64,000 nt of DNA from Eledone cirrhosa (Eukaryota), in the NCBI GenBank assembly GCA_964016885.1, contig CAXHJY010001659.1:1-64000 (forward strand), in the 5' to 3' direction. Under the pieces are notes generated by a model. That model ran no database searches. It had not been told where the DNA came from and saw nothing but the letters and a program-made list of their open reading frames with translations. Made by a program: the position numbers and the translations under genes. Within the stretch, counting starts at the first letter, position 1. Every line of letters starts with the position of its first letter. Of the stretch, positions 10,370-10,724 are shown in pieces.

Positions 10370-10724
10370 TAAAGAAAAAGAGATGAAATCGAAAATGCAA
10401 CTGGAGTCTTATTTTTTTTTAAAATATATATATTTATTTGGTTCCTTTACCGGTTTCGCAGTTCTTCTGCTTTACAAAAGGTGAGTTGAGATGGAGGGTC
10501 TGTGGTTTTTCTCACGTGAGAAAAACCACAGACCCTCCATCTCAACTCACCTTTTGAAAAGCAGAAGAACTGCGAAACCGGTAAAGGAACCAAATAAATA
10601 TATATATTTAAAAAAAAAATAAGACTCCAGTTGCATTTTCGATTTCATCTCTTTTTCTTTATACTTTCACTCGTGTAGGACACCTCGGTTATTTTTCATT
10701 TTGTAAAAAAACCCTCACTTTCTA
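10370..10724 (+). mobile_element. Fold-back element (~290 bp spacerless palindrome plus ~60 bp tail) with HHR
   Basis: Arms mirror around CTCAC|GTGAG (10515/10516), with TA flanks. A non-inverted copy lies at 17868-18070 (-). Confidence 0.85.
10550..10587 (+). ncRNA. Minimal hammerhead, U3-A8 core variant
   Basis: CCTT TTGAAAA GCAG aagaa CTGC GAAA CCGG TA AAGG, with palindromic ACCGGT stem III. Confidence 0.8.

Follow-up and report, generated by a model that had tools for sequence, protein, structure and literature searches.

A UUGANAA heptamer at 10554 of the window (the whole stretch of 64,000 nucleotides analysed here) reads as the core of a hammerhead ribozyme in which U3-A8 stands in place of C3-G8. 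The locus raises three questions: whether the motif is a ribozyme, what kind of element carries it, and whether the same core in a Penelope-like element at 62.7–64 kb makes the two elements kin. With a probability of about 0.8, we read 10550–10587 as a minimal hammerhead of the dimer type (type I) that terminates, on the 3′ side, an abundant Penelope-like family in an animal genome, the founder of which swapped C3-G8 for U3-A8 (Table 1).

Table 1 Features of the motif, of its repeat family and of the element at 62.7–64 kb
Feature	Position	Strand	Basis or detail
Predicted minimal type I hammerhead, U3-A8 core variant	10550..10587	+	descriptor match and fold
Stem I, 5′ strand (pairs with 10584-10587)	10550..10553	+	descriptor scan; 4 bp in the window copy
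Core box U3-U4-G5-A6-A7-A8-A9	10554..10560	+	U3 = 10554, A8 = 10559; string and descriptor scans
Stem II, 4 bp, 5-nt loop, G10.1-C11.1	10561..10573	+	fold
GAA box, palindromic ACCGGU (10577-10582) and A17 (10583)	10574..10583	+	cofold
Forward, 5′-truncated repeat copy, ends at (TA)n	10516..10724	+	sequence comparison and reads
Inverted tail-less copy, (TA)n-flanked	10368..10515	-	146/148 nt identical to forward arm
Second locus of the 10554 family, between (TA)n runs	17862..18071	-	92% over 193 nt
Diverged relative	52952..53016	+	77% over 65 nt (blastn)
Decayed 3′ part of a Penelope-like ORF, Hydra clade by motif	62737..63630	+	profile, homologues, translation
Hammerhead-like motif in the 3′ UTR of the 62.7–64 kb element	63960..64000	+	descriptor

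The boxes of the motif fit a type I hammerhead in the descriptor, with a Watson–Crick 3-8 pair, the GAA box, A15.1-U16.1 and H17. Helix II comprises 4 bp, is closed by G10.1-C11.1 and has no bulged base between A9 and 10.1. In a fold of 10540–10600, stem II has a pair probability of 0.91–0.92, and the 38-mer is predicted to form both stems I and II (-6.4 kcal/mol); in a fold of 10516–10724, the probability of stem I is just 0.04. Positions 15.2–16.2 and loop 3 make up the palindrome ACCGGU, which pairs in a two-copy cofold (-20.3, compared with -18.9 for the hammerhead-shaped dimer). The helix III that this palindrome builds forms only between two copies. Hammerhead numbering places the predicted cut at 10583/10584.

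All five heptamers of the initial annotation (10554, 18036(-), 52985, 9782 and 63966) were recovered by string search. The heptamer says little by itself, because TTGANAA is so common in the window (80 sites over the two strands, where 60 local dinucleotide shuffles average 59.75). For the U3-A8 core, the full type I descriptor discriminates better: it finds four sites (10554+, 18036-, 63966+ and 60585-), against a mean of 0.45 and a maximum of 2 in the shuffles. A strict form, requiring 3 bp or more in stem I and 4 bp or more in stem II, retains two sites, 10554 and 18036, against 0.083 per shuffled window. Control cores in the same descriptor gave no site for U3-G8, one for C3-A8, one for A3-U8 and none for G3-C8; the C3-G8 core gave six, against 0.083 in shuffles. 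An Rfam scan of the whole 64-kb window returned no match at the gathering score, a result that we do not count against the motif because the six C3-G8 motifs of the window did not score either. The heptamer at 9782, which had also been put forward as a hammerhead, was rejected: it fails the descriptor through a C15.2-C16.2 mismatch, extra bases before GAAA and a 63-nt spacer. A looser descriptor that accommodates it was also satisfied in 41 of 100 shuffles, and 9782 is thus no better than chance and unproven as a hammerhead. The 60585(-) site has a stem I of 2 bp, and its inverted partner near 60190(+) reads U3-G8; it is probably either an old decayed hammerhead family or a chance match.

The 10554 family has a second locus in the window, where the copy at 18036(-) carries the U3-A8 core together with C15.2U and a stem I of 3 bp. 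The diverged relative at 52985 keeps U3-A8 and ACCGGU and fails the full descriptor because GCAA stands in place of its GAAA box. It differs from the 10554 family on both sides of one stem I pair and of one stem II pair. In a covariation test on four rows these two pairs were recovered, with 26 of 500 shuffles scoring as high and none in slid controls; the support is weak because a single relative among the four rows carries it. The initial annotation had spoken of several families with this core. What holds up is one family (10554 and 18036) with one broken relative (52985); 9782 is compatible with chance, and the 63966 motif belongs to one decayed copy.

Four sequencing runs from three organisms (X21, X1, X4 and X7) were aligned to the 208-nt family sequence at 10515–10722. 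The family is abundant, taking up 3,090 of 12,467,656 reads in X21 and 6,751, 18 and 13 contigs in X1, X4 and X7, respectively. In X21, 313 reads extend upstream of 10516 with a single consensus, from which it follows that the window copies are 5′-truncated; the read copies thus continue upstream, although they do not reach the ORF of a parent element. Neither 10554 nor 10559 appears among the 40 of 89 variant rows listed, at a depth of about 1,350–1,550 in X21; this run also has T>C and A>G places outside the listing, and U3C or A8G may be present there at a few percent. No place along the family sequence shows A>G at 2% or more in X1 or X4. X7 has no T>C place and X4 has two, both away from the core, with the core covered by only one or two listed contigs in each of these two runs. 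U3 and A8 are thus the family norm across the read and contig data of the three organisms, and the check set beforehand, that the family consensus keeps both positions, came out in favour of the motif. Other parts of the motif vary. With the commoner allele at 10549–10550 (352 of 456 X21 reads; 52% of X1 depth), stem I is left with 3 bp and one mismatch, compared with 4 bp in the window copy and a norm of 4–5 bp for the type. C11.1U is found in 283 of 1,522 X21 reads, and stem II and G12 are broken in one X7 contig. Viral contigs contained no match to the short-family pattern.

Copies of an amplified family are alike because they share a founder, and their constancy does not by itself show selection on each copy. 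The argument of the initial annotation for selection on catalysis is plausible for the founding element, but the constancy of one amplified family does not demonstrate it.

The locus at 10368–10724 has the structure of an insertion. The inverted arm abuts the forward arm without a spacer, (TA)n lies at both outer ends, the arms differ at two places (10474 and 10421), and a tail of about 60 nt (10664–10724) follows the 3′ end of the forward arm only. An inverted 5′-truncated copy, a tail at a single end and a (TA)n target are also what Craig et al. 2021 (PMC8557442) describe for Penelope-like insertions, and the locus matches them. The inverted arm holds an additional core copy, overlooked in the initial annotation, at 10477(-), which carries A6U. 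RNA of the entire locus is predicted to fold into a single long hairpin, with a probability of 0.0 for the hammerhead stems. The 10554 copy is probably inert, since a transcript across the locus would bury the ribozyme in this 148-bp hairpin. At neither the 10554 nor the 18036 locus did we find a head-to-tail array of the unit; copies are dispersed or inverted. Of separate note, the UGA of the core (10555–10557) closes a stop-free frame of 14 codons (10516–10557, +) that by eye is still open in the 30-letter upstream read consensus; a frame of this length arises by chance about one time in five, and this one may mark where the parent ORF ends.

These features suggest how the motif would have worked in its source. 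In the founding element, U3-A8 would have taken the place of C3-G8 with the pair preserved. Helix III cannot close in a single molecule, and two copies in a tandem transcript would therefore pair through the ACCGGU palindrome and be cut after GUA (10583), trimming the element RNA from a longer transcript. Most likely, the source element has a working dimer-type hammerhead, which cuts at the 3′ repeat of tandem transcripts in line with a proposal for Penelope-like elements (PMC4209133).

U3-A8 is not a new variant. It was published in 2011 and reported from Penelope-like elements in 2014, and the literature already notes that standard descriptors overlook it. Perreault 2011 (PMC3088659) reports U3-A8 cores in several natural hammerheads with the C3-G8 pair covarying and, citing Przybilski and Hammann 2007, activity of U3-A8 ribozymes in vitro. 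The short family shows the same core covariation, and the description of U3-A8 as a compensatory swap that keeps the pair was correct; the passage concerned gives those hammerheads without a Penelope-like placement or a type. Cervera and De la Pena 2014 (PMC4209133) describe U3-A8 in the Cercyon Penelope-like elements of Schistosoma, with about 1,300 matches to a dedicated U3-A8 descriptor. The Schistosoma mansoni Cercyon hammerheads are the closer parallel, being type I with a short helix I, G10.1-C11.1 and palindromic 15.2–16.2 positions that imply dimer use, and occurring as dispersed truncated copies. By contrast, helix II of the main Cercyon families has 7–8 bp with a bulged base after A9, whereas that of the short family has 4 bp and no bulge; the short family also resides in another host, with no parent ORF seen. 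A bulge between 9 and 10.1 and a long helix II, both absent here, are usual but not universal in Penelope-like hammerheads, and unbulged 4-bp forms are found among the entries of File S2 of Craig et al. (PMC8557442).

The short family also invites comparison with Naiads and retrozymes. Like Naiads as described in PMC8557442, it has inverted truncated copies, a one-ended tail and a (TA)n target; unlike it, Naiads are characterized there as lacking a canonical hammerhead and as carrying their endonuclease N-terminally. None of seven short motifs from the family had a 3′-end match in the supplement of Craig et al., a file in which line breaks could mask single matches, and by eye the last 600-odd nucleotides of five cephalopod Naiads provided there bear no resemblance to it. 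Non-LTR retrozymes (PMC7229834; bioRxiv 10.64898/2026.07.22.740005) are likewise short, non-coding, low-GC, Penelope-like-linked carriers of type I hammerheads, but they form head-to-tail arrays, unlike the dispersed or inverted copies here. None of the papers listed in a literature search on octopus Penelope-like hammerheads concerned the short family. The supplements of bioRxiv 10.64898/2026.07.22.740005 could list U3-A8 families.

The element at 62.7–64 kb had been labelled Naiad-like. Its coding remnant runs from the end of the reverse transcriptase (RT) thumb through a CxC linker and a GIY-YIG endonuclease to a stop and the 3′ UTR, and contains several in-frame stops. The thumb-end peptide upstream of the endonuclease matches residues 212–249 of P0090 (E = 7e-10), the C-terminal endonuclease has a profile iE of 2.7e-46, and in the homologues P0033 and P0090 the RT motifs lie upstream and the endonuclease is C-terminal. 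A HMMER library search with the endonuclease gave 2,467 matches with E of 0.001 or less; in single-protein searches, neither metagenome contigs nor longer proteins yielded a match to it. Pfam assigned no significant family to it, and a weak GIY-YIG match appeared in one of eight homologues. According to Craig et al. 2021 (PMC8557442), Hydra elements combine a C-terminal endonuclease with CxCX5C, CxxC and CxH motifs and (TA)n targets, whereas the endonuclease of Naiads lies N-terminal to the RT. The CxC, the following PLxGxCL and the CxH of the window element match the Hydra rows of their alignment, and by eye the translation has a CxC-x5 linker in place of the Naiad endonuclease marks (the CX2-5CxxC finger and CCHH). 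The C-terminal endonuclease thus rules out the Naiad label, and together with the linker it makes the element probably Hydra-type. Hydra membership is by motif only, because the decayed copy, truncated at (TA)n (62715–62734), lacks the third linker cysteine, the second CxxC cysteine and the RT core, and with the core the RWK and DKT motifs expected of the clade. The 3′ hammerhead-like motif and the (TA)n neighbour are further likenesses to the Hydra clade. The motif at 63966 reads UUGAGAA with a 4-bp stem II and the palindrome ACGUACGU; its stem I is weak, with two pairs before the end of the window cuts it off. The element differs in its U3-A8 core, as in its decay and missing RT core, from Hydra elements in File S2 of Craig et al., where 26 of 26 rows are C3-G8. 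A second, heavily decayed Hydra-type remnant lies at 27831–28257 (+; profile iE 1e-7). It is followed at 28215 by a hammerhead-like motif with U3 and G8 and the palindrome ACAUAUGU, which is a lone C3U decay in a dead copy.

The frequency of U3-A8 was determined in 100 Hydra-type loci, made up of 80 of the 433 confirmed in metagenome contigs and 20 from genome contigs, by scanning 900 nt downstream of the endonuclease with any base allowed at positions 3 and 8. A hammerhead motif was found in 68; of the other 32, 23 have less than 250 nt of 3′ sequence and 9 have more. The best picks of the script comprised 63 C3-G8 motifs, one U3-A8 and four odd cores (L042, L055, L068 and L072), and for the last four re-reading by hand revealed a C3-G8 motif closer to the ORF. 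The final count for a sample chosen by one peptide pattern, which the window's own endonuclease lacks, and rich in near-copies (48 distinct stem strings in the 63 best-pick C3-G8 rows), is 67 C3-G8, one U3-A8, no U3-G8 and no C3-A8. The exception, L078, is a Hydra-type element with a clean U3-A8 hammerhead in its 3′ UTR, at 1240–1290 (+); the stem I of this hammerhead has 6 bp, and several C3-G8 loci have exactly its stem II. In an endonuclease tree of 84 rows, from which duplicates and loci with fewer than 120 aligned residues had been dropped, L078 and the window element grouped in 0% of 200 bootstrap trees, which is weak evidence given the few columns and the long branches of both. The swap is rare and probably recurrent, and sharing it is for this reason poor evidence of one element mobilising another. 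Viral contigs contained no Hydra-type locus. Loci L081–L100 are Hydra-type animal retroelements whose contigs are deposited as parts of bacterial genomes; host DNA most likely contaminated those assemblies.

The main rival to a working hammerhead in the founder is that the ribozyme was already dead, its C3-G8 pair drifting to U3-A8 through two A+T-biased transitions that were then copied passively without cutting. Drift of this kind is at odds with the intact state of the palindrome and the remaining conserved core positions, with odds of one in 78 that two random changes among 13 conserved positions strike the 3-8 pair, with the 52985 relative, which holds U3-A8 through compensatory stem changes, and with the absence of mismatched 3-8 pairs from the 68 Hydra-type motifs. 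Yet both core changes are transitions towards A+T in a window of 39% G+C, stem I is weak in most copies, a lone C3U decay has occurred in the dead copy at 28215, and Penelope minimal motifs are reported to cut only as dimers, and then poorly (PMC4209133). We consider a dead founder unlikely on balance. A chance match within an A+T-rich inverted repeat would explain the common heptamer and does suit 9782, but for 10554 it is already refuted by the descriptor statistics and the covariation, and the palindromic helix III and G10.1-C11.1 speak against it as well; we give it almost no weight.

Kinship between the short family and the Hydra-type element, by derivation or mobilisation, was proposed from their common core, and the resemblance extends to the 4 bp of stem II, to a helix III built on a palindrome and to neighbouring (TA)n, the last being a target of Hydra elements (PMC8557442). 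Against kinship, the stems and palindromes differ, (TA)n targeting is common to several Penelope-like clades (PMC8557442), U3-A8 is found also in the Schistosoma elements (PMC4209133) and in L078, and the 63966 core is that of a single decayed copy. Blastn detected no similarity between 62735–64000 and the short family, and comparison of the family with the 100 Hydra-type loci gave only short A+T-rich matches among the matches listed. We regard the proposed link as improbable. Within the preferred reading of a dimer-type hammerhead, the family could conceivably be the 3′ end of a Penelope-like lineage with U3-A8 fixed, either a Naiad or a divergent branch of Hydra, of the kind deemed to lack hammerheads or to have C3-G8 alone. 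This is an unlikely identification; if it were true, reliance on CUGANGA strings would account in part for the reported loss of hammerheads from whole clades, and the 63966 element would represent the first Hydra family with U3-A8, all 26 listed rows being C3-G8.

The finding adds one abundant family and probably one Hydra-clade example to a known core variant, and thus carries little biological weight. Its practical consequence is that surveys requiring CUGANGA undercount such ribozymes. The initial annotation had anticipated that searches with this string miss U3-A8, as they do, and Craig et al. 2021 (PMC8557442) used it in their core searches. The rough rate for Hydra-type elements, one U3-A8 in 68 with no mismatched intermediates, fits selection on the 3-8 pair and at the same time warns against taking U3-A8 as a mark of kinship.

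The host is apparently an animal with a genome rich in A+T and microsatellites, perhaps a cephalopod judging by the resemblance of a repeat. The window contains further hammerhead-like motifs and retroelements. Hammerhead-like C3-G8 motifs of other families lie at 17501(-), 54266(+), 19516(-), 20747(+), 31264(+), 57979(+), 60697(+), 54043(+)/53740(-) and 6434(-), the last four by a loose descriptor only; the 20747 motif precedes a decayed Neptune-like ORF (about 21566–24010). A multi-copy family sits in (TA)n, often inverted, at 18074–18257, 6520–6655, 13120–13314, 31578–31725, 44095–44246 and 53157–53367. By eye, CUGA follows a GAAAC box, a hairpin and GUC on its minus strand, a permuted order reminiscent of how Naiad_Obim and Naiad_Ovul end on the 3′ side as given by Craig et al. 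(GAAAC before CUGAUGA), and the family is possibly a permuted hammerhead. An apparently intact two-ORF non-LTR retrotransposon occupies 44482–49884 (+), encoding a zinc-knuckle protein of 643 aa and an endonuclease-RT of 1,150 aa, and fragments are present at 54788–55945 (-).
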